Positions 2,666-43,552 of a stretch of DNA of 64,000 nucleotides are shown piece after piece. The stretch comes from an uncultured Acidimicrobiales bacterium (GTDB taxonomy: Bacteria; Actinomycetota; Acidimicrobiia; Acidimicrobiales; Bin134): positions 1,901,954-1,965,953 of the forward strand of contig OX638350.1 of the NCBI GenBank assembly GCA_951813325.1, written 5' to 3'. The first letter of the stretch is position 1. Every line of letters starts with the position of its first letter. The notes under the pieces were generated by a model. That model had not been told where the DNA came from. It did no database searches and was given only the letters and a program-made list of their open reading frames with translations. A program made the translations under genes and the position numbers.

Positions 2666-3037
2666 TCAGCACCCTCCGAGTTCGGCGGCTGCGGAATGCC
2701 CGAAGCCGCCGAGCTCGACGGCAACCGCCCCCGTGGCCGGGGTGAGGTTGGTGAACACACGGGGCTGCCAGGCAAAGCTGGCGTCCACCCGAAGTACAGG
2801 ACCGCCTCCGGTTTGGTCGACGCAACCGGACAGCTTCGTCCCGTCAATTCGGATGGCATTCACCGTGCTTCGGTCACACCCCTGGCTGCCGCAACCGTCG
2901 ATGAACTTTGCCGCGGCCCTCTCGGCCCGGTCAGCCGCCAGATTGCTGTTGGTGATCAACTCGGCGTGGTCACCCAACGAGCCGGCCGTCACGGCCACCG
3001 CCAGACCCAGAGACAGCAGAACGATGGCGGTGTGCAT
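2666..3037 (-). CDS. TadE/TadG-like pilus assembly protein (N-terminal hydrophobic segment)
   Basis: Small protein with N-terminal TM segment immediately downstream of the other tadE-like genes in the same operon. Confidence 0.45.
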   Translation of the reverse strand: MHTAIVLLSLGLAVAVTAGSLGDHAELITNSNLAADRAERAAAKFIDGCGSQGCDRSTVNAIRIDGTKLSGCVDQTGGGPVLRVDASFAWQPRVFTNLTPATGAVAVELGGFGHSAAAELGGC

Positions 3038-3041
3038 CCGC

Positions 3042-3461
3042 CTAGCCCACCGGCTCGACGCTGGCGGCGACTATCCGGGTGGCTTTGAGCAGCCGGCCCA
3101 GCTCAACCGGGCAAATGACGACTGCGGCCACCGAAGGCGAAAACCTGGGATCATGGGAAGGGCGGGGCTGGGAGACCAAGCTGACATTGAAGGCGGCGTC
3201 GGTTTGGCTGCATACCCCAGCGGTGGCGGCCAAGCCGGACTGCTCCACCGCGGCAACCGCCTCAGCCCACCGAACCCGGTCCGAAGGCTCGGCACTGGCC
3301 GCGGGGGACCGGGTCAGAGTCTTGGCCGCGTTCACCGCGGCTGCTTCGGCGAACGTGGAGGTGCGATAGCGAGCCGTGCCCAGCGTCCCGGCGGCGTCGA
3401 GCACAACCACACCGAGCAGCAACCCGGGCAAAACCAACAGGAACGCGATGGCGTCGCTCAT
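3042..3461 (-). CDS. TadE/TadG-like Flp pilus assembly protein
   Basis: N-terminal hydrophobic helix 'AFLLVLPGLLLGVVVL'; position within the tad operon. Confidence 0.5.
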   Translation of the reverse strand: MSDAIAFLLVLPGLLLGVVVLDAAGTLGTARYRTSTFAEAAAVNAAKTLTRSPAASAEPSDRVRWAEAVAAVEQSGLAATAGVCSQTDAAFNVSLVSQPRPSHDPRFSPSVAAVVICPVELGRLLKATRIVAASVEPVG

Positions 3462-3471
3462 GGGAGTGCCA

Positions 3472-3873
3472 TCAACACGAGCTGGGGATGCTGAGTGCCG
3501 CTGCGCCGGCGGCCGATCGGCAGGCGACAGAGGTGGTGTGCAACGCCGATACCCGGGTATCCGACACCGCAGCGGTAACCGATACGATCAAGTTGCAGGC
3601 GTCGGCTCTCACCTCGACCGCCACCGGCTGCACCGCTAGATGCTGGATCTGGCTCAGCGCCGCTCGAGCCGCAGCCGCCTCGGCCTCTGATGGGGGAGGG
3701 GACTGGCACCGCCATCCCACCGCAGCAGCAGCCTGCGCGGCCGCGGCCGCGGCTGACTGGGCCGCAGCGTCCGCCGACAATCGAGTGATGTGGCGAACGT
3801 ACAGTCCGGTGATCAAAGCCAATAGGAGCATCAGCAGCATCGCAGTGCGCAGCACCACGAGAGAGGTGGCCAT
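3472..3873 (-). CDS. TadE-like Flp pilus assembly protein
   Basis: N-terminal hydrophobic helix then Ala-rich region; position right after the pilin-like gene in the tad operon. Confidence 0.5.
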   Translation of the reverse strand: MATSLVVLRTAMLLMLLLALITGLYVRHITRLSADAAAQSAAAAAAQAAAAVGWRCQSPPPSEAEAAAARAALSQIQHLAVQPVAVEVRADACNLIVSVTAAVSDTRVSALHTTSVACRSAAGAAALSIPSSC

Positions 3874-3879
3874 GGGCGG

Positions 3880-4047
3880 CTAGTGGTGTGTCGTGGGTTT
3901 AGCGCCGTGGATTGCGACGGCAGCGGCGTTCCTCGCAAGGCGCACTGACGCAGCCATACTTCCAGCGTACGGCAAGGAGGGGCAACGCCGCGAGGGGCGT
4001 CGATGCCTAGCAGGACACGCGCGAATAAACCCACGACACACCACTAG
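3880..4047. mobile_element. MITE-like element copy 1 (~160 bp, 22-bp perfect TIR ctagtggtgtgtcgtgggttta/taaacccacgacacaccactag, flanked by CTAG)
   Basis: Near-identical copies at 31131-31298 (same orientation, 1 mismatch) and 41901-42068 (inverted); terminal inverted repeats read directly. Confidence 0.8.
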
Positions 4048-4244
4048 CCGCAAGTACTCGTGCTCACTGTCCAGCTGCCCCCCACTGCCTCGCACAGCGT
4101 CTCGCTGGTGATCCGGGATTTGTCGATGTTGTCCCCTGTTTCAGGGGCGTTGTCGCTGAGTTGGGCGTAGACGATGATGGCCACGATGGCAGCAGCGGCG
4201 ATGCCAACCACGATCAAGATCATCTGGACGATTGCTGATTGCAT
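4044..4244 (-). CDS. Small hydrophobic membrane protein, candidate atypical Flp-type pilin
   Basis: 66 aa, TM helix, good RBS (gaggaag) right after tadC; lacks the canonical G/xxxxEY prepilin motif, so the pilin call is positional. Confidence 0.4.
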   Translation of the reverse strand: MQSAIVQMILIVVGIAAAAIVAIIVYAQLSDNAPETGDNIDKSRITSETLCEAVGGSWTVSTSTCG

Positions 4245-4277
4245 GTTTGTTCTTCCTCGGAGAAGCTGCCGATGGCC

Positions 4278-5030
4278 TCAGATCACGAAGATCACGGCAG
4301 CCATGACGACGAGACCAGCGATTCCAGCCACCAGAGTGACTGTGGTTCCGATAGCCCGGCTGAGCTGGTCGATCGCCAGGCGTCTTTCGGACTCCAAGGT
4401 CCGAACTGATCGGGACAGGGACTTGTCCAGCAAGTCCGATGACGCGGCTCCGGCCCTTTCGGCGGCCACCACCGACGCCAGCAGCGGCGCGGCGGGGGAA
4501 CCGGCGATGGCCTCGGTGACCGCGGGCAGCGGGTCTCGTCCAGCGTCCAGGGCCGCCCCAATGGCGCCCTGAGCCACGGAGAAAGCCTGGCCCGATACCT
4601 TCAGCGCGGCGTTGACCGCAGCGGCGTTGATGGGTTGGCCCGCCGAGGTCAACAGCCTCAGCTTCCGCATCCACTCGAGCATCTTCTGGTCCCGCTCACT
4701 GCGGTAGGCCGTGGCGACAAACGCCTGAATGGCGGCTGGCACCAGCCGGGGAAGCCACGTTCCGGCTATCACCGCCAGGGCCAATCCCGCGGCCCTCCCG
4801 GACATTGAAAGCCCCGTCAAACCACCGATAGCTGCCCCTGCGCCGGCCAGAAGCCAGCCTGTCAAAGAAATCCGACTGGGCGGCCATCCCATCGCAGCAG
4901 CTTGAATCGCGGTCCGGCTGTTGGTCTTGGGCGGGGTGAGCAGTAGAACGGCCACCACAGCCACCCCCGAAAACCCGGACAGCAAGATCATCGCCCCATC
5001 CGCCACGCGGGGGCCAGCACTCGGGCGCAC
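4278..5030 (-). CDS. tadC: Tad pilus assembly membrane protein TadC (T2SS-F domain)
   Basis: Polytopic membrane protein with GspF-like cytoplasmic domain; operon position. Confidence 0.7.
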   Translation of the reverse strand: MRPSAGPRVADGAMILLSGFSGVAVVAVLLLTPPKTNSRTAIQAAAMGWPPSRISLTGWLLAGAGAAIGGLTGLSMSGRAAGLALAVIAGTWLPRLVPAAIQAFVATAYRSERDQKMLEWMRKLRLLTSAGQPINAAAVNAALKVSGQAFSVAQGAIGAALDAGRDPLPAVTEAIAGSPAAPLLASVVAAERAGAASSDLLDKSLSRSVRTLESERRLAIDQLSRAIGTTVTLVAGIAGLVVMAAVIFVI

Positions 5031-5803
5031 AGCGCGGCGGTCAGCACCGCGACAAGAAGCATCAATTGCTGCCCCACCGGCGACGTCAGCCAGCGCCCCA
5101 CGTCTTTGGCAGCAAATCCGGCAATGGCCAGCATGCCGACGGCCATTGCCACAGTGACCGCGACTTGGGGCATGAGCGCGGCCACGTAGCGGTGGAAGTG
5201 GCGGGCAGTCTCGGCCGCCTCGGTGGCTTCATCAGCCAGCACGCCGGCCAAGCCCACCCACTGCGAACCACCCCGGAATGCCTCAGCCAGCACGGTGGCC
5301 AGCATCTCGGCAATCGGCCGCCCGATAGTGGCGGAAAAGCGGTTGGCCGCCTCCACAAGGCCGCCGGTCTCGCATTCAGAGGCCATCAGCCGGGCAGCGG
5401 CCCCGACCCGGCCGGGAATCAACGGGGCGGCTTGACGTACAGCTTCCACCACGGTGGGGGCCACCAATGCCTGGTTGGCCAATCCGTTGGTCAGCTGGGC
5501 AAGTTCGTCAGCCTCCCGCAGACTGCGAGAAGACCGGATCTGAACCGCCATGGCCCACACGCCTACGCCGCTCAGTACCATCACAGCCACACCGGTGGTC
5601 GCTCCCACCAGCACGAGCCCCGCGGTGAATACCGAAGCCGCCACAACGGCGGCCAGAAGCGGGCCGGCTGGAAGTGAGCGTCGCTGGGCCAGAACCAGGC
5701 TGCCCATCAGTAGAACTGAGGGACTCCCGGCCGACGTCGGCCACCAGACGATGGCCATCAATGCGAGCCCAGCGGCCAAGGCCACCGCGACCTGCGCACT
5801 CAC
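4988..5803 (-). CDS. tadB: Tad pilus assembly membrane protein TadB (T2SS-F domain)
   Basis: T2SS-F-like membrane protein; GTG start overlaps tadA stop (GTGA). Confidence 0.65.
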   Translation of the reverse strand: MSAQVAVALAAGLALMAIVWWPTSAGSPSVLLMGSLVLAQRRSLPAGPLLAAVVAASVFTAGLVLVGATTGVAVMVLSGVGVWAMAVQIRSSRSLREADELAQLTNGLANQALVAPTVVEAVRQAAPLIPGRVGAAARLMASECETGGLVEAANRFSATIGRPIAEMLATVLAEAFRGGSQWVGLAGVLADEATEAAETARHFHRYVAALMPQVAVTVAMAVGMLAIAGFAAKDVGRWLTSPVGQQLMLLVAVLTAALCARVLAPAWRMGR

Positions 5804-7428
5804 AGGATCCTCGCTGAAGAGGCCGCGCCCGATGAGAACGAAGCTGTCGACCCCCTGTCGGCGATCGCGTGCAGGTCCTCAGCTGAACAGGGATCGATCC
5901 CTACCGATTGGTACAACCGCTCGACCTGGCCGACTGGCCGGCTCATGGGAGTGGCCCACCGCTGGCCGGGGCGAAGCGTCCACAGGCACTCGGTGTCGAT
6001 GGTGTCATTGCGGTCGTCGTAGCTGACGATCTGGGTGACATCGGAGATCACCCGCTCTCCGTGCTCGTTGCGGCCCAGCCACACCAGCAGATGGACGGCG
6101 ATAGCGGTCTGCTGGCGGGCGAACCGGGGATCAGCACCCTCGCTGCACGCGTATGACAGCAGTTTGGCCAGCACCCCGGTCCCAGGCTGGCTGTGCAGGG
6201 TGACCAGGCAGCCGTTGAGCCCGCTGCTCATGGCGTCGAGCAGCGCGAGGGTGCCTTCGCCCCTGGTTTCGCCGATAACCAGCTTGGAGGAGTTGGCCCG
6301 CTTGGCGTCGCGGATGTGGTCGCTCATGGTGAGCTTGCCCACGCCGTCGTTGTTGGCATCCCGGGTGAGGCGCTCGTAGCTGTTGAAGTGGATGCCGTAC
6401 TGGGCCAACCGGAGCTCGGGGGTGTCCTCGATGGTGTCGATCCTCTCCGAGCCATCGACGGAGGCCAAGAGGGCCTGGCAGAGCGTCGTCTTGCCGCCCC
6501 CCATGGCCGCGGCAACCACGATGTTGGCCCGGATCGGTCCCGACACCGCTCCGAGGAGGATCTTCTGCAAACGCGGCCCGGCCACATGGAGGTCGTTCAA
6601 GGTGGCCTTTCCGGCCATATTCGACCTGAGCACCATGGTAGGCGGATGGCACATGAACGCCTCGGCATGGAGCCGCCACCGGTCGCCGAGTCGGATGTCC
6701 AGGCGACTGTCGAGCACATCGAATCGTTGAGGCTGTCCGCCGGAGAAGCTGGCCAGGTGCCGGGCTGTCTCGATCAGCTCGTCGTTGGACGAGAACGGTG
6801 AGTTGCGACGCTCCCGCTGACCCTCCGCTCGGTGGACGATCATGCACTCTCCCCCTCGAATCTGAAACTCCTCAACCCCGGTTTCATCCAGCAGGTCGGC
6901 TAGTCGGGTTTGAGCAGCTTGCGATGCCGACCACAGATGGGTCTCGCGGTCGAGCGGATCGAGCCGGCGGGGCGCGACCGCGGTCCACGCCAGCCTGCGC
7001 CCGAGCCGGTGCAGTCGGCGAAGGTGGTTTCGAGCCGGTTCGGGCGGCACCCAGAGGGTGAAGACCCTTTGGCGGCGCGAGCGTCCCGTGTCCGGCTGGT
7101 CGTCCGACACGACCACCGACACAATCGGGGTCGAGCGGCGCGATCCGGTGTCCATCCGCAGCAAGGAGCGCACGTCGGTGCTGTCGGAGATGGTGATCCA
7201 TAGCACCGCAGCGGCTGATGCGACCGCCGATTCCAGACGGAGCTCCGGCTCGTCGTCGCGCATAGACAGCACCGTGGGATGGCCGGCGGCCGACGCCTGG
7301 TCTACCTCAGCGGGAGAAGTGGCCAAGACCACGCCAGGGGCAGTGCTGGAGATCCCGTCCAACACCCCGTTCATCACCTGCTCAACAGCCTTGGCGTCGA
7401 GCCAGCGGTCTCCAATAGCCAAAAGCAT
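5800..7428 (-). CDS. tadA: Tad secretion ATPase TadA/CpaF with ~150-aa N-terminal extension
   Basis: Walker A 'AAAMGGGKTTLCQAL', VirB11/CpaF-like C-terminal half; start chosen at the ATG (7428) that overlaps the upstream gene stop (ATGA). The ORF track shows a longer 612-aa frame. Confidence 0.85.
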   Translation of the reverse strand: MLLAIGDRWLDAKAVEQVMNGVLDGISSTAPGVVLATSPAEVDQASAAGHPTVLSMRDDEPELRLESAVASAAAVLWITISDSTDVRSLLRMDTGSRRSTPIVSVVVSDDQPDTGRSRRQRVFTLWVPPEPARNHLRRLHRLGRRLAWTAVAPRRLDPLDRETHLWSASQAAQTRLADLLDETGVEEFQIRGGECMIVHRAEGQRERRNSPFSSNDELIETARHLASFSGGQPQRFDVLDSRLDIRLGDRWRLHAEAFMCHPPTMVLRSNMAGKATLNDLHVAGPRLQKILLGAVSGPIRANIVVAAAMGGGKTTLCQALLASVDGSERIDTIEDTPELRLAQYGIHFNSYERLTRDANNDGVGKLTMSDHIRDAKRANSSKLVIGETRGEGTLALLDAMSSGLNGCLVTLHSQPGTGVLAKLLSYACSEGADPRFARQQTAIAVHLLVWLGRNEHGERVISDVTQIVSYDDRNDTIDTECLWTLRPGQRWATPMSRPVGQVERLYQSVGIDPCSAEDLHAIADRGSTASFSSGAASSARIL

Positions 7429-10698: not shown

Positions 10699-11216
10699 CG
10701 TGCTGTCGCTATCCCCGATGGGTTCCAGCGGGCTCAGCGGCTTCGGGATGTTCGTCGGTTTCGCCACTTTCTCACTGGTCATGGGGGTCGGCTCCATCAC
10801 GCGCCGACACTCAAACTAGTTAGAGCAACCGCCCCACTGCTCTGAAATCGCGGTCCTCACACCGTGGAGCGCGTCGTCTCTTGGGCGCGCAATACGGAAA
10901 TCTGCTGCCTGCTGCCTCTAGCTGAACAGCACCCAGGCGACCACGAGGAAGCTCGCCGCCTGGAACATCGTCTCTAAGTTGTCTAGCGCAAACCCGAGCA
11001 CCTGCATTTGCCTGCCTCTAGCGCTGGATGGGTGTTACAGCACCATTGTCCCCAACGCTGTGACAGTTCCCCGATGCCAGTGGCAGCGCCCTTCGAGGAC
11101 CGCGCCGCGGTCCAGAGGTGGATTTGGCGGCTGCTGGAATACTGCGTGCGACGTAGCGGGCACCCGCTGACGGCCTTGGTGAGGGGGTGCCCAGAGACGA
11201 GCAGGATTGACGGACC

Positions 11217-12706
11217 ATGGTCGAGTTGCGGGACTACCAGGTGAAGGCCATAGCCGACATCAACGCACTTTGGCCGTCTGCCAGATCGATCATCCTGCAG
11301 ATGGCGACCGGCGCCGGCAAGACGATCACGGCCTCGGCTTTGCTCAGGGGGAGTTCGAGTCCATTCCCAACCTTGTGGTCGGGTGGATGGTGCATACGGG
11401 CCACCTGCGGAAACAGGCAGCCGAGGCTTTAGATCTGCTCGGTGTGCAATGGGTTGACTGGTCCACTGTTCGTGCCTCACAGCGCCGTTGGGAACCAGGG
11501 CAAGCGCATTGCTTCGGCTCCACGATGTCCCTGCCGCCTGGCCCTGCCACCCGCGACGCATTGCTGATCGTGGACGAATGCCATCGCTCGGCGAGCGACA
11601 CCTACGCCAAGCAGATGAACCGGCGCGGCGGCAGGAACCGTCACCGCATATGGGGCCGGTGCCTGGGGCTGTCGGCGACTCCGGCCCGATACGGCTGGCC
11701 CGATGCAATCAGCCGCTCTCAGGGGTTGTTCGCGCGGCAGTGGGATGCGATGGTCTGCGGCCCGTCGCCCGCCGAACTGGTCGAGGCGGGCCACCTGGCC
11801 GACATTGTGGTGAAGTCCATAGACGAAGCGGGCGGCGACTGGGAGGTGCTGAGACCTGACCCGATGCGCGCCAGCGGGTTCTCGTCGGCATCGGAACAGA
11901 GATGGGAGCGCACGCTGTCGGTCGACGCGGCTGCGGCCATCATCAAGCGCGTGGAGCCGCGCCCGACCATTTGGTTCTGCGCGCCAACAGCGGCAGCAGC
12001 TCAAGTGGTGAAGCTGCTGGGGCGCAGCAGCGCCAAGATCCTCGCCGAAACGTCCTACAGCGAACGTCTGGACCTCTTCGACGCGTTCAGGGAAGGCAGC
12101 ATCGAGCACCTGGTGACCGTGCGGGCACTGCTGGAGGGTACCGATATCCCCGCAGCGAAGCGGATCGTCCAGCTAGCTCCGTCGCGCTCTCGGGTGCTGC
12201 TGTCTCAGGCGGCAGGCCGCGGAAGCCGACCGCCAGGCGTGATGGAGCTATGCGACTTCTCCCAAAGCTGGTCCCACATCGGAGCGCACCCGCTAGACGA
12301 CGTGCCATGGCACCTCTCCCTCGATCCGACTGCCGACTCTGAGCATGTCCATTCGGCCACAGCGCGCACCCGCACCTGCCCCACGCCAGGCTGCGGAACA
12401 GTCATATCGCCGCGCACGCAGCGCCTCTGCCCCACATGCAATTTTGAGGTAGTCCGCCGATGTACGGCGTGCTGGCAGCCCATGTCCGAGGACGCTGAGG
12501 ACGGCACTCACCGCCGCTGCCGCAAATGCGCCGCCGACGAGCGCTCCCTGCACACTGAATGGGCACGGCGCCACGGAACCGAGCCGCTGCCAGATCGCGA
12601 CATCACCGAGGATTCCGGCGGCGAGACGATCGCCGCTAGTTTGGAGGCCCTTGAATCTCTCCGAGCGGCGGCAGCGGTCCTTGAACAGCACACAGGACAG
12701 AGATGA
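11217..12706 (+). pseudogene. SF2 DEAD/DEAH-box helicase with C-terminal double Zn-ribbon, disrupted by a frameshift at a G5 run (~11346-11350)
   Basis: N-terminal motifs 'DYQ' and Walker A 'MATGAGKT' lie in frame 0 (ORF 11217-11432). DEAH 'DECH', 'SAT', 'QAAGRGSR' and a CxxC..CxxC tail lie in the frame of ORF 11207-12706. One extra G would restore ...ALLRGEFESIP... Confidence 0.7.
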
Positions 12707-13250: not shown

Positions 13251-14711
13251 TCAGTATTTGTGCCATTGGTCGCCGTGAGGAGGTCGGGTACACCTTTTTT
13301 TGCTCTTGACGCCGATGTGCTGACAGCGGCCTGTGCTCGCCGCAGATGGTGGCGGTGCTATCGGCTTGATCTGGTCTGGCAAGTCGGAATCGAACGAATT
13401 GGGAGGCAGCGGGGGGACGCCGGCCATCTGCGACAGGCCAGCGCAATGGGACGCGCGGTATTCGATCCGGTCCGCCAGCTTCCGAATCACCTCGCTGCCA
13501 GCGAATTCAGCGGAAAGCGACTGGAGCGCCTGGTCTAAGGCAGATGGAGTCTGCCTGGCCATGTCCTCTGCCCTGGCAACGGCCTCCTCGCCGTCGCAAC
13601 CCATCGACTCCGCCGTCTCGTGCCATGCCGAATGCCTGTCGGCTTTGGCCACCGTGTACTTCTTCCCGATCTTCATGGCCAGCTTCGTCCTGTTGACCGA
13701 ATGCCAGTCAGGCTCGTAGGGGAGCACAGAGGTGATGTCGTACAGGGGGGCGAACCGCACCGTGCCCCCCCTCAACAGGAAAGAATAGTTCTTGGCGTGG
13801 GCATCGGTCCCGACGATGATCCAGTTGTAAATCAGAGCATCCAGGAACCTGTGGGCATCGCTGTCGGGTTGGGAGCTGTGCTTTCTGATCGACTCCGCGA
13901 TCTGTTGCGGCGAGGGGCCGCCGTCGCCTTGGTATTTGTCGTCGGGGTGGACCCCCAGTGCCTGGCACATGTCCTCTTGGTGGATTCTGGCCGTTTGCCC
14001 GTCCGCGCCAGCAAAGCGGTCGAAGCGACTGATGACGATGCTCTGGATCGGCCCGAAGCTGGCTATCTGGGTTTGAACCGCCAGCAGCCCCAGGTTCGAT
14101 GCTGTTTGCAGGCATACATGCTCATTCAACGCCTGGTCCGGCAAGTCCGGGTCATTCATCGTCGGCTTGATGATGTGCGTGCTCGGCTCCGCACCCATTG
14201 GAATTCCGTACTTCCCCCCAGAGAACACGACGGCCGTTTTCGCTTGAGCCCCAGAGAGGGAGAAACGCCCAAAGTTGCTGCTTTCTGGCCCGTGCCAAGT
14301 CGTTCTGTGGTCCCTGAGGCTCTTGATCAGAGTGACGAGCCGCTCCTCCGTCAGCCAGTCAACGCTGCCTCCTCGCCCCATCAGGCCACCGACTTCATCT
14401 GCTGAGCAGAACTGCACAGCGCCAGCGCAATCATGCCCCACTGGGCTGGCCAGTATCGCTATCGCGCTGCTGCCCTTGATGCCGAACTTGCGTCGCCACT
14501 CTCTCCGCACTTCCAGGTTGTCGGGCAACAGACCCTCCAGCCAGGAGTCAACATCGTGCTGGCCCGCCACAAGCGGAATGCTCACGGAGAGCGGGGTGGA
14601 GAGCGGGTCGGCCAGGTACTCGTCAAAGTAGGAGAACGTAGCTCGGCCCGCACGACCTCCGACTGCTGCGCCTGCGGGCTTGCCATGCACGATGACTTCA
14701 AGACGGGTCAT
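13251..14711 (-). CDS. hipA: HipA-family serine/threonine kinase toxin
   Basis: HipA N-terminal domain, 'SLSGAQAK' and catalytic 'GTDAHAKNYSFLL' motifs. Confidence 0.85.
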   Translation of the reverse strand: MTRLEVIVHGKPAGAAVGGRAGRATFSYFDEYLADPLSTPLSVSIPLVAGQHDVDSWLEGLLPDNLEVRREWRRKFGIKGSSAIAILASPVGHDCAGAVQFCSADEVGGLMGRGGSVDWLTEERLVTLIKSLRDHRTTWHGPESSNFGRFSLSGAQAKTAVVFSGGKYGIPMGAEPSTHIIKPTMNDPDLPDQALNEHVCLQTASNLGLLAVQTQIASFGPIQSIVISRFDRFAGADGQTARIHQEDMCQALGVHPDDKYQGDGGPSPQQIAESIRKHSSQPDSDAHRFLDALIYNWIIVGTDAHAKNYSFLLRGGTVRFAPLYDITSVLPYEPDWHSVNRTKLAMKIGKKYTVAKADRHSAWHETAESMGCDGEEAVARAEDMARQTPSALDQALQSLSAEFAGSEVIRKLADRIEYRASHCAGLSQMAGVPPLPPNSFDSDLPDQIKPIAPPPSAASTGRCQHIGVKSKKRCTRPPHGDQWHKY

Positions 14712-25251: not shown

Positions 25252-26466
25252 GTGCTCCACCACCGCCATCCCTACCGCTGGGTGATGCTGGGGGCACTGT
25301 GGCTGGTGTACTTCTCCTTCGGAATAGCGGTTTTCGGCATGACTCCGCTGGTGAACGTGATCCGAGAAGACTTGGATCTGAGCAAAGGGGCCATGGGAAC
25401 GATTCTGGGGGCTTGGCCTCTGGTGTTTCTCGTTGCGGCGATGCCAGCTGGAGCACTCGTCGATCGGCTCGGACTGCGCCGCTCTCTGGGAATCGCCACC
25501 GTGATCATCTCCGCCTCCGCGCTGTTGCGTCCGGTGGTCACCAACTTCATCGGCATGTTTGGCTCGGTGGCATTGTTTGGCCTCGGCGGGCCGCTGGTTT
25601 CGGTGGGGGCCCCAAAACTGATCAGCGTCTGGTTCGACGAGGAAGAGCGAGCGCTGGCCATGGGGATCACCATGTCTGCACCGGCCATCGGCGGAGTCTT
25701 GCCCCTGGTTACCGCCAACAGCCTCCTCATGCCGGCATTCGACCAGAGCTGGCGGGCGACGCTCATGGTTTACGCCCTCATCACCGTGGCGATCATCGCT
25801 GTCTGGTTGGTTGCTGCTTCCGCCGGAGAGAAGCTCGCTCCTGGAGTGGACCGCGATGCCAATCCCGACCACGGCTTCTCCGGTGCCAGGGGCCTGTTGC
25901 GCCATCGAGCCGTCCAGCTCATGCTGATCGTGGCCCTTGGCATGTTCTTCTTCAACCACGCCCTCAATGGATGGCTGCCAACCGTGATCGAAGACCGGGG
26001 ATTCTCCAGCTCAGCGGCGGGCTACCTCGCCGGTGCGGTCACTGCCCTCAGCATCGTCGGCGCGCTGCTGGGGCCGCGCCTGATCCCAGAAAGCAGCCGG
26101 ATTGCGGTTATGGCCGGGGTTTATGCCGTGTTCGCCGCCGCCTCCATTCTGCTGTATGTGGACGTCAAGGCAGCCACCTTGGCCGGGTTGGCCATAATCG
26201 GCATGAGCAGAGGGCTGGCTGTACCGATTGCCCTTGTGGTGATGATGCAGCTCCCCGGCGTTGCGCAGCGCAATATGGGAGCGGCCGGTGGATTGTTCTT
26301 CACAGTTGGTGAAGCCGGTGGCGTAACCGGACCGATCTTGTTCGGCGTTCTCGCCGACATCGGTGGTTTCGGTGCCGGGCTCGTGCTGCTTACTGGGGTA
26401 GCCGGCCTAACCGGAATCCTGACCCTGGGCCTTCGCTCGGCAATGGCCCGCGTGAGGGACTACTAG
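25252..26466 (+). CDS. MFS transporter
   Basis: 12 predicted TM helices; MFS-like loop motifs. Confidence 0.7.
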
Positions 26467-28733
26467 GCGCCCCGACCCTGGATGAGCTCCTGCAAGGCCT
26501 CGTCATCGCTCACCAGTTTGGTCACCACTGCCTCGTCGACGTCGGCGACGACGATCTCGCCCACCTCGTCGGACACCGACGCGAAGAAGCCCAGCTCCTT
26601 CATGCCCACGGCCTGGCGATAGTTGTCCTCGGTTGGTGTGAGGTATTGGATCGACACCGCGTTGTAGCGGCGGATGAGGTACAGGTGCATGAGGGCCATA
26701 AGCCGCTTGCGGCGCAGAGCGGGGCTGTGGGTGTTCTGGTCCCGCACGGAGAGGATGGCCCGGCCACGCCGGTCGTTCAGGACTCCGAAAACCACGTTGG
26801 CCAGGTCGTTCGTGCCGCTGTAGACCACCAACTCGAGGATCTCCGAACCGGCGGTGTAGGGCCGCAGCCGGACCTTCAACTCGGCGTCGACGCTGTTGTG
26901 GGCCGCCCAGCGCTCCAGCCAGGCCTCCAGCTCGCGGGTGGGAACCTCGGTCTGCACCAGGTGCTGGAACTGGGTTGAGCCCTTGCCCATGGCTCGGGTG
27001 GTGGCGGTGCGCCCCGAGCTGGCCATGAGCGCGGCGTCCAGGCGGGGTCCGCCCACCAGGGTTTGCGGTGTCCTGTAGGGAGAGTCCACCAGGCGGAACC
27101 TGCGCTGGAGCCGGGCCAGGGCCAGCATCCCGTCCTGTTGGAGGGACGCAGCGAACTCCTCCCCCGCCATGCCGTCCACCTGGTGGCCGCCGTAGGTGAT
27201 GAAGTTGAACACGAACCCCAGGCGCCCCAACTCGGCGGGGAATTGCCGCATCTCATCCTCGGTCATTCCGGTGGTGTCCCAGTTGAACGACGGCGACAGG
27301 TTGTAGGCCAGCATCTTGCCGGGATACACCGCGTGAACAGCCTCGGCGAACTCCCGGGCATCCTCCAGGTCGGCGGTCTTGGTCTCCATCCACAAGAGGT
27401 CGCAGTACGGGGCCACGGCCAAAGACTTGGCCACCGCATAGGGGATGCCTCCCTGCACCTGGTAGTACCCCTCAGTGGTGCGGGCCACCTCAGGATCCCA
27501 GGCCACGTCCAGGCCCATCTCGACAGCCCGTTCCCGGGCGGTGTCGGTGTCGACCGAGCGGGCGAAGCCGAGCCACTCGGCGGTGTGCATTCCGAAGCTC
27601 TCCCCCTCCGATGACCGCATCGCAATCTGGTCGGCTACCGCTTGGGCATAGGTGGCCAGCCCCGATGCCCGGTGCCATGCCTCGGCCAGCGCATCAGACA
27701 CCCGGTCTACCGCGTCGTCGGCCCGGGGATCCGGCGAGGAATGGTAGGTGACCGCCGTCTTCTCGATGATCTGGTTGACGCCGGTCTGATCGAGCCATCC
27801 CATGGCCCGCTTGTAGCGGCTCTCGGGCACCGCGTAGAGCAGGTGCCCGTTCACCCCCTCCACACCGACTTCGGCGAGCCGCCGCAAAACCGCCAGGTAG
27901 GCGTCCTTGTAGGAGGGGACCGACAGCTGGGTGGCGCCCATTATGAACGGCTGGTCGCGCTCGTCGGCGCCGCCGTCCAGCAAGTTGGCCGCCTCGGCGT
28001 CGGTGCGGGCCACGATGATGCCCGACACCCCCATCACGTCGAGCTGGAATCGAGCGGCGTTCAACCGCTTGATCTGCTCATCGCACGCCACCAGCACCTT
28101 TCCCCCTTGGTGGCCGCACTTTTTGACACCGGGCTTTTGGTCCTCGATGTGGTAGCCGGGAACCCCGGCCTCCACGAAGCGGCGGACCAGATTGCGAACG
28201 TGGGGATCGCCGCCGTGGCCGGTGTCGGCGTCGGCGATGATGCTGGGAGTGAAATCCACCTCCGGAATGAACTGGCGCTCCGATGGGCTCATCCGGGATC
28301 GGGCGAACCGCTGGTTGCGATCGGCGGTCAACAGTGCCCGCACCAGGCCGGCAGCCTCGTCGGGGACCATGCTCAACGGGTAGCTGGCCAAATCGGGGCC
28401 GGGATCCTCGTGCAAAGAGCCCTTGGCCGATGTGGCCCAGCCGCCCAGATAGATGCCCTCGATCCCCGCCCGCTTCATGGCCACGGCCTGGCCCGGCGAA
28501 TAGGGGCCGAACGTGGAAATGCACCGTCGCTGGTCGAACAGCTCCCGCAACCGGGTATAGAACCGCTCGGCCGCCATCCGGGCCACCGTGTAGTCCTGGT
28601 CGATCAGCCCGCGCTGCTCCACTACTTGGCGAGCCGAGTACAGGCGGGTCACCCCCTCGAAGCGGGGCGAGGCCATCCACGCGTGGGTGGATCGAACCTC
28701 GGCATCGAATGAACCGACAACGTTGGCGGCCAT
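26463..28733 (-). CDS. aceA: Isocitrate lyase, long (ICL2/AceAb-type) form
   Basis: 756 aa; ICL signature 'KKCGHQGGK', strong similarity pattern to mycobacterial ICL2. Confidence 0.85.
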
Positions 28734-31039: not shown

Positions 31040-31130
31040 CAGAGCGCGCCAATGGGGAACACCACATGCCTTCCAGCCATTGGCTCCTCAACAGATTCGG
31101 CGATCCAGAGTTCACCTATCGGCCCGGGCC

Positions 31131-31298
31131 CTAGTGGTGTGTCGTGGGTTTAGCGCCGTGGATTGCGACGGCAGCGGCGTTCCTCGCAAGGCGCACCGAC
31201 GCAGCCATACTTCCAGCGTACGGCAAGGAGGGGCAACGCCGCGAGGGGCGTCGATGCCTAGCAGGACACGCGCGAATAAACCCACGACACACCACTAG
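31131..31298. mobile_element. MITE-like element copy 2 (same orientation as copy 1)
   Basis: One mismatch versus copy 1; CTAG at both ends; lies between convergent glcB and the flotillin gene. Confidence 0.8.
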
Positions 31299-41598: not shown

Positions 41599-41904
41599 GT
41601 GATTTCCAAAAGCTTGCTAGAAAAACTCGAGAACGCGGCGGATGATTGGCGGTGCCAGGCGGCCTGCCGCGATACCGACCCAGATCTCTTCTTCCCCGTA
41701 GGCAGCACAGGCTTGGCTCTAGAGCAGATCGAGTCGGCCAAGGTGGTGTGCCAGACCTGCCTCGCCCTGGACGATTGCCTGGAGTTCGCCTTGGCCACCA
41801 ACCAGGACTCCGGCATCTGGGGCGGCACATCAGAAGAAGAGCGACGCATGCTCCGCCGCCGACGGGTGGCAGAGCAGCGCGAAGCCGCTATCATCTCGGC
41901 CTAG
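41599..41904 (+). CDS. whiB1: WhiB-family transcriptional regulator (WhiB1-like)
   Basis: 4-Cys cluster 'CQAAC...C..C' plus 'GIWGG' turn; convergent with pdtaS as in M. tuberculosis. Confidence 0.8.
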   Translation: MISKSLLEKLENAADDWRCQAACRDTDPDLFFPVGSTGLALEQIESAKVVCQTCLALDDCLEFALATNQDSGIWGGTSEEERRMLRRRRVAEQREAAIISA

Positions 41905-42068
41905 TGGTGTGTCGTGGGTTTATTCGCGCGTGTCCTGCTAGGCAGCGACGCCCCTCGCGGCGTTGCCCCTCCTTGCCGTACGCTGGAAGTATGGCTGCGT
42001 CGGTGCGCCTTGCGAGGAACGCCGCTGCCGTCGCAATCCACGGCGCTAAACCCACGACACACCACTAG
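41901..42068. mobile_element. MITE-like element copy 3 (inverted orientation)
   Basis: Reverse complement of copy 2; its terminal CTAGs supply the TAG stops of whiB1 (41902-41904) and pdtaS (42065-42067). Confidence 0.8.
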
Positions 42069-43552
42069 CTGCCGGTAGGGGCGCGGCCCCCAAGAAGAGG
42101 GATCGCCACCTCCACCACGGTCCCGGGGCGGGGCGGATCCCCCTCGCCGTCGCTCATAGTGATGCTCCCCCGAAGGTCGGCGCCCACCAGATTCCCTACG
42201 ATGGCGATTCCCAGCCCATTGGCGTTGTCCACGTTGAACCCGGGCGGCAGTCCAACCCCATCGTCGGTCACCCGCACCTCCAACCAGTCGCCGTCGTTGT
42301 CCAATTCGATCAGCACCTGCCCGCCGGGCGGCTCGGGATAGGCATGGTCCATGACGTTTTGCAGGCATTCGTTGAGCACCACTGCCAGGGGCGTGGCCAC
42401 ATCGGCAGCCAGTTCCCCGGCATCGCCGGTCACTTTGAACTCCACCGGCCGGTCGGGACCAGTCAGCCCCTCCTCCACCATCCGCACCAGCGACCGCACG
42501 ATCTCCACGAACGGCACGTCGCTGCTGGCGTCGCGCGACAAGATCTCGTGAACGATGGCGATCGCCCGAATGCGCCTCACCGACTCCTCGATGGCGTCCC
42601 GAGCCTCCGCGGCAACGGCCCGGCGACCTTGCAGGCGCAGCAGCGAGGACACCGTCTGAAGGTTGTTCTTCACCCGGTGGTGTATCTCGGCGATGGTGGC
42701 GTCCTTGGACATCAGCAGGCGATCCCGGCGGCGAAGCTCGGAGATGTCCCGCACCAACACCAACGCGCCGGTCAGCTCTCCCCTGCCGATCAGGGGCAGA
42801 CAGCGCAGCACCACCGTGCCCCGATCGCCGTGCTGGATCTCCTCGGTCTGGGGCAGTCGAGAGGCGAACGCGGCCCGGATGGCCCGCTGCTCCAGGCCGA
42901 TCTCCGCCAGTCGGCGGCCCTCCACGTCGCTGTGGAGACCGATGCGGTGCAGGGCCGAGGCGGCATTGGGAGAAATCAGCCGAACTCGGCCTGATGCGTC
43001 CAACAGCATCAAACCGTCGCCCACCCGGGGAGACTCCTCTGTCTCGATGTCATCCACTGGGAAGGGGTACTCCCCTTCGGCAATCATGGCCGCCAGCCGC
43101 CGGAACAGCTTGAAGTAGCTCATCTCCAACTCGCCGGGGTTGCGCTGGATATCGGGATCGAACTCCCGAGCCATCACCGCGATCACCTCCCCGTGACAGC
43201 TGACCGGCACGGTGAGCGTGCGGATGCGGGGTTGGTCGGCGTGGCCGATGCGCCCGCCGTCGATGATGCGGCCCTCCCGGTAGGCCACGTCCACGAGCGG
43301 ACGCTGGTCAGGGGTGAAGCGAGCCCCCACCAAGTTGTTGCGATGGACAGACCGAGCTGTGGTGGGCCGGATCTGCCCCGCAATGGCATAGCTCTCCGGA
43401 CTGCGAATCCTGCGGCCGGCGGGCACGTACAGGAGCAAGTCGGCAAAGGAAATGTCGGCCAGCGGGGCCCACGTCCGCATGAGCCTCTGGAGATGGTTCA
43501 GGCGCGACTTGGGAAGGCCGGGTGCCAATTCCTCCAGGCTCGCCATCGTCAA
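42065..43552 (-). CDS. pdtaS: PdtaS-type sensor histidine kinase (GAF/PAS plus HisKA_2)
   Basis: H-box 'EIHHRVKNNLQTVSSLLRLQ', C-terminal HATPase; synteny with whiB1. Confidence 0.8.
   Translation of the reverse strand: MTMASLEELAPGLPKSRLNHLQRLMRTWAPLADISFADLLLYVPAGRRIRSPESYAIAGQIRPTTARSVHRNNLVGARFTPDQRPLVDVAYREGRIIDGGRIGHADQPRIRTLTVPVSCHGEVIAVMAREFDPDIQRNPGELEMSYFKLFRRLAAMIAEGEYPFPVDDIETEESPRVGDGLMLLDASGRVRLISPNAASALHRIGLHSDVEGRRLAEIGLEQRAIRAAFASRLPQTEEIQHGDRGTVVLRCLPLIGRGELTGALVLVRDISELRRRDRLLMSKDATIAEIHHRVKNNLQTVSSLLRLQGRRAVAAEARDAIEESVRRIRAIAIVHEILSRDASSDVPFVEIVRSLVRMVEEGLTGPDRPVEFKVTGDAGELAADVATPLAVVLNECLQNVMDHAYPEPPGGQVLIELDNDGDWLEVRVTDDGVGLPPGFNVDNANGLGIAIVGNLVGADLRGSITMSDGEGDPPRPGTVVEVAIPLLGGRAPTGS

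Follow-up and report, generated by a model that had tools for sequence, protein, structure and literature searches.

The window, by which we mean the whole stretch of 64,000 nucleotides that was analysed, belongs to a sponge-associated Acidimicrobiia bacterium (Sva0996 / Ca. Poriferisocius group), and MPNQ bin134 is a symbiont of Aplysina aerophoba (PMC5649159). Part of the window is occupied by an array of genes which are all encoded on the minus strand, and between two small genes of this array lies a short repeat with two further full copies elsewhere in the window. The relevant features are:

2666-3037, minus strand: 123-aa gene, which closes the series of small genes in the array
3042-3461, minus strand: 139-aa gene with a TadE-like hydrophobic N-terminus, intact in the MITE-bearing alleles
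3472-3873, minus strand: 133-aa gene directly downstream of the repeat (ATG at 3873-3871), called 'tadE-like' in an earlier sequence-only reading of this DNA
3880-4047, reference orientation, plus strand: MITE copy A, missing from otherwise identical alleles
3880-3901, plus strand: left TIR of copy A, including the CTAG target copy at 3880-3883 with its TA at 3881-3882
3923-3995, no strand assigned: central core of copy A, homologous to the core of the Neisseria Correia element and of Burkholderiales MITEs
4026-4047, minus strand: right TIR of copy A, including the CTAG target copy at 4044-4047
4044-4244, minus strand: pilin-like gene of 66 aa (hydrophobic N-terminus), which has a GAGGAAG ribosome site of its own and ends with its stop in the right CTAG
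4278-4991, minus strand: TadC-like membrane protein with a T2SSF domain
4988-5803, minus strand: 271-aa membrane protein in the TadB position, a label that is positional only
5800-7428, minus strand: CpaF/TadA-like secretion ATPase with a T2SSE domain
31131-31298, plus strand: MITE copy B, between convergent malate synthase and Band_7 genes
41901-42068, minus strand: MITE copy C, between convergent genes for a WhiB-family protein and a PdtaS-like histidine kinase

Counting both CTAGs, copy A comprises 168 bp. Its ends form a perfect 22-bp inverted repeat, CTAGTGGTGTGTCGTGGGTTTA, with an end motif of the GTGGTGTGTCGTGGG-like type. A search of the window for this exact 22-mer gave six matches, which represent three pairs, compared to none expected from dinucleotide-preserving shuffles. 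The three full copies A, B and C differ at 1-2 positions (about 99% identity), and the sequences directly outside their CTAGs are unrelated. With regard to coding capacity, the element contains nothing but spurious ORFs of at most 72 aa that run through the hairpin. It thus combines the features by which a MITE is recognized: a size below about 600 bp, TIRs, dispersed copies with unrelated flanks, a duplication and no coding capacity for a transposase. We conclude that 3880-4047 is a non-autonomous cut-and-paste transposon (MITE) which encodes no protein, and that it represents a new CTAG-targeting family of sponge-associated Acidimicrobiia, related to Correia elements as judged from its core. 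The sequence-only reading had already taken the element for a MITE, and the perfect terminal repeats, the three copies of about 99% identity and the precise empty and filled sites described below confirm this. Identity with a known RNA family was rejected, since the Rfam scan of the window at gathering thresholds found only one tRNA, located elsewhere, and nothing at the element, and a relaxed scan of 3800-4130 delivered only plant miRNA-precursor hairpins far below threshold.

The family is not restricted to the window. Further copies with 95-99% identity were detected in at least seven other sponge-associated Acidimicrobiales genomes by an exact-TIR scan with one genome per species, and these genomes include Ca. 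Poriferisocius and Sva0996 group MAGs. A metagenome scan added 14 further contigs, and many of these break off within the repeat. Altogether, more than 20 MITE sites were found in other genomes and metagenomes, and every copy is flanked in the form C-TA...TA-G. All alleles that were recovered contain copies B and C, and a comparison of the window copies with those of other species revealed no orthologous contexts.

Besides intact copies, several reduced forms were observed. The 66-bp stretch L019:1830-1895 is a mini-element that consists of little beyond two TIRs, a deletion derivative. Solo ends of the MITE occur at L007:3931-3981 (identical to L028) and L008:1133-1192, one of which adjoins a vapBC pair, and the truncated remnant in L008 has diverged to 88% identity, unlike the intact copies. 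The apparent solo ends in L007/L028, L008, L023 and L029 were dismissed as truncated copies or chimeric contigs, and the single match to a viral contig (L032) as a chance 18-mer in AT-rich DNA. One metagenome contig (L041:4557-7371; ERZ15614278 NODE_797) departs from the window 9 nt past copy B (at 31122 and below) and carries a xanthine/uracil permease gene in place of the malate synthase gene; this difference is either a structural variant or a mis-join beside the repeat.

The history of copy A can be read from alleles of the same locus. Look-up of the 66-aa protein led to independent contigs from metagenomes that match the window with 99.5% identity in the flanks. Five of these (L011, L013-L016) possess an empty site with a single CTAG, reading TGCGGCTAGCCGCCCATGG, that is GCGG-CTAG-CCGCCCATG, and here the stop of the pilin-like gene and the start of the 133-aa gene are 6 nt apart. 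In contrast, two other alleles (L012, L017) are filled, with the element at the same place as in the window. Among the sponge samples, ERZ15614616 is an example with the filled site and ERZ15614278 one with the empty site. The difference between filled and empty site is exactly 164 bp, with CTAG on both sides instead of one CTAG. An assembly artefact was ruled out, because the filled site is found in the independent assemblies L012 and L017 and the empty site in five others. Compared to the empty alleles, three SNPs and a 12-nt indel are common to both MITE-bearing haplotypes, pointing toward a single insertion event with subsequent divergence. This divergence amounts to 0.33%, and the 133-, 139- and 123-aa ORFs are intact in both haplotypes. 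Copy A is thus a precise, recent and strain-polymorphic insertion into CTAG among strains that are about 99.5% identical, and the ancestral operon contained no spacer element. The indel itself is in frame and falls into a 443/447-aa gene upstream of the ATPase gene (alignment columns 1290-1301), where it was seen in the window and L012 and in none of the empty-site alleles.

Since the site is empty in contigs of 99.5% identity, copy A is no built-in part of the locus, and any regulatory effect that it has is a by-product of a recent insertion. This speaks against the sequence-only reading where it treated the element as an evolved regulator: in strains whose flanks are 99.5% identical, the two genes are separated by 6 nt and the element is missing. 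In the comparison with the loci of relatives which that reading had suggested, the arrangement without the element exists in close relatives (five alleles) and two others are filled.

To which kind of locus do these genes belong? For the ORF at 5800-7428, the best NCBIfam model is TIGR03819 (TadA family) and the best solved relative is the Tad pilus ATPase CpaF (E = 2e-25), whereas the ORF at 4988-5803 matched no Pfam or NCBIfam family. The four small ORFs of 66, 133, 139 and 123 aa all possess hydrophobic N-termini, and their ancestral spacing is 6, 10 and 4 nt. However, neither Flp, DUF4244 or TadE (PF07811) nor any other Pfam or NCBIfam profile was detected in the four proteins, even at E ≤ 10. 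A PDB sequence search with the 66-aa protein gave no relative, and the G/XXXXEY processing motif was not found in it. Measured against a Tad/Flp (type IVc) locus, the ATPase and platform proteins are present (T2SSE, and T2SSF in the TadC-like protein), but an Flp-type pilin and TadE/TadF minor pilins were recovered neither by profiles nor by the motif. The domain matches thus support a Tad-like locus with a CpaF-type ATPase and at least one T2SSF-type membrane protein, while the labels 'pilin' and 'tadE' are only positional guesses from size, position and hydrophobic N-termini. Of the gene names given before, the Tad-like character of the locus stands, and 'pilin-like' and 'tadE' find no Pfam or NCBIfam match even at the relaxed threshold mentioned above. 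We use 'operon' for this array based on spacing and strand only.

Other aspects of the sequence-only reading were accurate. The MITE does lie within the Tad-like array, which is tightly packed and co-directional. The right CTAG supplies the stop of the upstream gene, as the TAG of the 66-aa ORF is located at 4046-4044 inside it. Likewise, the left end was placed 7 nt from the start codon, and there are indeed 6 nt (3874-3879) between the left CTAG and the ATG of the 133-aa gene, so that the A of this ATG is the seventh base from the element.

In the neighborhood of the locus, two further observations were made. First, a 42-bp tandem repeat (6.6 copies, 96% identity) is located at 1778-2053 inside the ORF 1097-2614 on the minus strand. 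It encodes a 14-aa repeat in a 505-aa protein without family match, and blast alignments between alleles suggest that its copy number varies. Second, a helicase C-domain protein and, after it, a HipA-family kinase toxin gene are encoded nearby (11207-12706, plus strand; 13251-14711, minus strand), and the helicase C-domain protein near the Tad-like locus is reminiscent of the actinobacterial 'helicase/secretion neighbourhood'.

The position of copy A can be understood from the target. CTAG is rare in the window, which has 65% G+C: 52 instances were observed, in contrast to 87 expected from a Markov model or 205 from a zero-order model, and many of the surviving CTAGs are found at gene ends. 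Among about 22 independent sites of the element, the flanking CTAG provides the stop of the neighboring gene in eight others as well. Five other sites have the element 5-8 nt in front of a start codon, and one of these is located between the GlnD and NUDIX genes. At one site, between two ABC-transporter genes, the stop of the first gene is used and the element ends 7 nt before the start of the second. With respect to the downstream genes the orientation of the element is 7 to 3, a bias that is not significant. Copy C demonstrates the principle for convergent genes: the WhiB-family gene (41599-41904, plus strand) and the histidine-kinase gene (42065-43552, minus strand) each obtain their TAG stop from one CTAG, and both genes must have shared a single CTAG as overlapping stops before copy C was inserted. 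An unoccupied site of this kind is found at 26463-26466, where one CTAG serves as common stop of a convergent MFS transporter gene (25252-26466, plus strand) and an isocitrate-lyase-like gene (26463-28733, minus strand).

CTAG is palindromic, contains TAG on both strands and flanks the insert at either end after insertion, so that stop codons are never lost. Copy A was inserted precisely into the CTAG that holds the TAG stop of the 66-aa pilin-like gene; this gene has therefore kept its stop, and the 133-aa gene its ATG and the 6 nt preceding it. The position of copy A then follows from the choice of the target together with selection against intragenic hits, and no operon-specific explanation is needed.

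The relationship of the element to other mobile repeats was approached through its central part. When plasmid and chromid records were searched with a sensitive blastn, only weak matches (E 0.1-2) were obtained, of which all interpretable ones fall into small palindromic repeats. One of these is a Correia element of Neisseria gonorrhoeae (L044), which has 23 of 24 nt in common in GTACGGCAAGG.GGGGCAACGCCG, plus extended similarity. Others are unannotated elements of about 120 bp in Ralstonia (L046) and Eleftheria (L045), which align over about 73 nt with 74% identity. Local alignment with the Correia element reached a score of 45, compared to 16.9 ± 2.5 for 2000 dinucleotide shuffles, and with the Eleftheria element a score of 58, compared to 18.7 ± 2.7; none of the shuffles scored as high. 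In the reciprocal search, four elements matched only the three MITE copies in the window, with E values from 1e-5 to 7e-8 for three of the four and E = 0.007 for the Cupriavidus element (L047). The Eleftheria element in turn matches Ralstonia, Cupriavidus, Paraburkholderia, Massilia and Neisseria. In a five-way alignment, a core is common to the elements and the terminal repeats are unrelated. Accordingly, the core of the CREE (…CGCAGACAGTAC…GTACGGCAAGGCG.GGCAACGCCG…) was recovered as homologous (0 of 2000 shuffles reach the score), but the 26-bp Correia repeat TATAGTGGATTAACAAAAATCAGGAC, which defines the CREE sensu stricto at both ends, was not, as the TIR of our element, CTAGTGGTGTGTCGTGGGTTTA, has only GTGG in common with it. 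Strict identity with the Correia element was therefore rejected. Instead, the alignments indicate that the MITE is a distant relative of Correia elements, with a central part of about 75 nt that is homologous.

Several properties agree with this relationship. CREE (nemis) of Neisseria are, like the present element, small (about 105-157 bp), TA-flanked and non-coding inverted repeats that form long hairpins, and they are often found at gene junctions and co-transcribed. On the other hand, they carry the 26-bp Correia terminal repeats, of which only the GTGG near the tip is common to both. The element described here targets strictly CTAG and not simply TA, has about 20-30 extra nt per arm and lacks a detectable sigma-70-like promoter, and its host is a high-GC sponge symbiont of the Acidimicrobiia and not a betaproteobacterium. 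The MITEs of Burkholderiales (Ralstonia, Cupriavidus, Eleftheria, Paraburkholderia and Massilia) align over an internal region of about 73 nt with 74-76% identity, agree in their hairpin architecture and occur in several intergenic copies too, yet differ by their terminal repeats (AGAGCGGCTAACAAAAC), their shorter length of about 120 bp and the phylum of their hosts. As a separate observation, the core and part of the ends of these unannotated Burkholderiales MITEs resemble the Correia elements of Neisseria. From these similarities the Correia lineage seems wider than Neisseria, even within the Betaproteobacteria. Within the literature searched, there is no mention of an actinobacterial relative, and Correia is treated there as an element of Neisseria.

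The target and the duplication bear on the mobilizing enzyme as well. The element inserts into CTAG in every copy, and with its G...C ends a duplication of TA and one of CTAG look alike. We infer a transposase of the IS630/Tc1-mariner type, with duplication of TA within CTAG, and regard one of the IS5/IS427 group as less likely. A relaxed TIR search (up to five mismatches) for an autonomous IS in the window and 31 loci revealed only MITE-type pairs, none of ten large ORFs from the window encodes a transposase, and the exact-TIR matches of two collections contain no autonomous partner. Mobilization by an IS5-family (IS427-group) transposase with YTAG/CTAG targets and duplications of 2-4 bp is the less probable option. 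In its favor, TA and CTAG duplication account equally well for the empty and filled sites, and neither the window nor the fetched loci provided an autonomous partner that would decide for one type. IS5 duplicates 4 bp at CTAG-like sites, while IS1301 duplicates TA in AYTAG (ISfinder families). However, the relatives of the element among the Correia repeats are described as TA-duplicating and Tc1/IS630-like, and TA within CTAG is a documented target of IS630, which inserts there according to Tenzen & Ohtsubo as cited in PMC2170065. MITEs derived from IS630/Tc1-mariner elements (e.g. Nezha of cyanobacteria) and IS630 itself resemble our element in their insertion at TA within 5'-CTAG-3', in TIRs with a short duplication and in empty and filled sites of close relatives that show recent mobility. 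They differ in that a cognate IS630-family transposase with matching ends was not found for our element. Chunjie, a MITE of Geobacter uraniireducens, is different again, being A+T-rich, flanked by 9-bp direct repeats and unrelated in sequence.

Even if the insertion requires no regulatory explanation, it might have consequences for the transcript. The mRNA of the operon carries the reverse complement of copy A, as the reference orientation is on the plus strand. In the sense of this mRNA, copy A with its flanks is predicted to form a single long hairpin (-107.2 kcal/mol; z = -8.1 against dinucleotide shuffles), and the strongly structured insert of the sequence-only reading is thus confirmed as a very stable hairpin that is added to any read-through transcript. 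The flanks are complementary by chance (GCGG/CCGC), so that the basal helix becomes a perfect duplex of 26 bp in the predicted fold, which stops 2 nt short of the ATG of the 133-aa gene. Inside the element, a scan of 3400-4400 found neither a sigma-70-like promoter nor a U-tract terminator, and no TANNNT box placed for a leaderless transcript was visible by eye in the same interval. Constrained partition-function folding gave a cost of 15.7 kcal/mol for opening the region from -18 to +12 around the ATG of the 133-aa gene in the empty allele versus 28.1 kcal/mol with the MITE. If a ribosome is modelled on the pilin stop and the next 12 nt, the cost with the MITE drops to 9.3 kcal/mol, as the ribosome then encloses the 5' arm of the basal helix. 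Thus the model predicts little independent initiation on the 133-aa gene, while termination-coupled initiation remains.

From this, the following mechanism might be envisioned. A read-through mRNA would gain a hairpin of about 160 nt, and its base, the perfect duplex of 26 bp that reaches to within 2 nt of the ATG, would block independent loading of ribosomes on the 133-aa gene. Translation of this gene would then depend on ribosomes that terminate at the pilin stop and thereby melt the base of the stem. In addition, a duplex of 26 bp would be long enough for RNase III, and a cut would detach the pilin segment, capped by the hairpin, from the part of the mRNA that follows. On balance, the downstream small genes would probably be expressed at a lower level and more tightly coupled relative to the pilin-like gene, rather than transcription being terminated. 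Transcribed CREE hairpins, which have been studied best among MITE hairpins of this kind, are substrates of RNase III, which are cleaved or bound with a change in mRNA stability (PMC2649163; PMC10969869), and by analogy we propose that the hairpin of copy A may be processed in the same way. We infer the RBS-occlusion and RNase III steps from the folding model and this analogy; occlusion of the ribosome site, cleavage by RNase III and 3' protection of the pilin segment are plausible candidates for a post-transcriptional effect. The REP/BIME and ERIC repeats of enterobacteria are also repeated palindromes located in operons, where they shift the stability of upstream mRNA segments relative to downstream ones, although REPs are units of about 35 bp without the TIR/TSD structure of a transposon and their sequences are not similar to our element. 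On the basis of the model, an attenuator or processing effect of copy A is therefore plausible as a physical side-effect on translation or RNA processing.

Taken together, the best overall explanation, and in our judgement a probable one, is the insertion of a MITE into a CTAG stop with an incidental effect on the operon. One type of evidence does not fit easily. An orthologous MITE is found between the GlnD and NUDIX genes of two species, with identical site and orientation in both (L001:6164-6331 and L006:3134-3301). The two elements differ at 1.8% of positions (3/168; 98.2% identical), whereas the 4-fold sites of the flanking genes differ at 20.6% (112/543; Fisher p = 4e-11), and identity is not raised in the adjacent 300 nt. 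Since two copies in one genome (L001 and L009) differ more than the L001/L006 orthologues, homogenization within the genome is an unlikely reason. Furthermore, among 12 full copies, 10 of 44 unpaired columns are variable versus 6 of 116 paired ones (p = 0.002), and the pair is kept in five of the six paired-column changes, including one fully compensatory change from G:C to T:A. As far as these comparisons go, such strong conservation would not be predicted by a purely incidental and selectively neutral insertion. It might possibly result from selection on the hairpin, from repeated re-insertion at the same CTAG or from hairpin-templated repair.

Selection on the hairpin leads back to the idea of the sequence-only reading that the element is an adaptive module, kept because its hairpin sets a high ratio of pilin to minor pilins, by attenuation or by stabilization of the upstream mRNA. 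We consider this rather unlikely. The conservation just described, far beyond neutrality for the orthologous copy and with substitutions that avoid stems or compensate in them, would agree with it, as would the 12 kcal/mol by which the hairpin raises the opening cost of the RBS and the fact that Correia relatives modulate the fate of mRNA. The MITE haplotype has also persisted through 0.33% divergence with intact downstream ORFs, in several samples. However, five independent alleles of 99.5% identity have a 6-nt junction and no element, which means that the operon works or worked without it, and the placement follows from CTAG targeting. Moreover, the 7 to 3 orientation toward downstream genes is not a significant bias, and copies occur between convergent genes too, where regulation of an operon is impossible.

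A broader version of this thought would be a cross-phylum superfamily of Correia-like MITEs that combine different TIRs, and so different transposases, with one core of about 75 nt. Its hairpin would be selected by the host as a domesticated module at stop/start boundaries, which enforces translational coupling or creates RNase III sites, and the insertion in the tad locus would be newly recruited. This scenario seems unlikely to us.

A polar loss of function is very doubtful. Here the hairpin would abolish expression of the 133-, 139- and 123-aa genes and disable the Tad-like machine, as a first step in the decay of the locus. The ATG indeed lies 2 nt from a perfect 26-bp helix without a Shine-Dalgarno sequence, at an opening cost of 28 kcal/mol, and the native stop-start coupling distance of 6 nt is lost. 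Nevertheless, two MITE-bearing haplotypes that have diverged from each other still possess intact downstream ORFs, and according to the model the site becomes free when a ribosome terminates (9.3 kcal/mol). The same architecture is also found inside the pair of ABC-transporter genes, and it is kept across species upstream of the NUDIX gene. There the MITE is located 5 nt before the ATG, and 15 of 230 residues differ between the two species compared to 17% of the 4-fold sites of the gene itself. The NUDIX gene is thus still under purifying selection, indicating that such insertions are tolerated in the long term, and the persistence of this architecture argues against complete polarity.

Finally, an intrinsic (rho-independent) terminator that ends the pilin transcript is extremely improbable, despite a very stable GC-rich hairpin right after the stop codon, because the stem is far longer than those of terminator hairpins and is followed by CCGCCCAUGG, also given as CCGCCCAUGGCC, without the U-tract that mycobacterial (actinobacterial) RNA polymerase needs for intrinsic termination (PMC3993855). 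For the same reason, the attenuator of the sequence-only reading is unlikely in its transcriptional form, as the hairpin lacks a U-tract and no terminator-like site was found.

The insertion of a MITE into a CTAG stop, with an incidental effect on the operon, remains our preferred reading. An element that targets CTAG can be inserted at stop codons, including stops shared by convergent genes, and still leave the reading frames intact, which helps to explain the persistence of such elements in compact high-GC genomes. Furthermore, the homology of the core suggests that the Correia lineage spans Betaproteobacteria and Actinobacteriota, and since this core appears to be constrained, it bears on the question of how Correia elements originated and are mobilized. 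Near-isogenic strains with and without a 164-bp perfect hairpin at a stop/start junction of an uncultured symbiont, in turn, represent a natural experiment on MITEs and the expression of operons.
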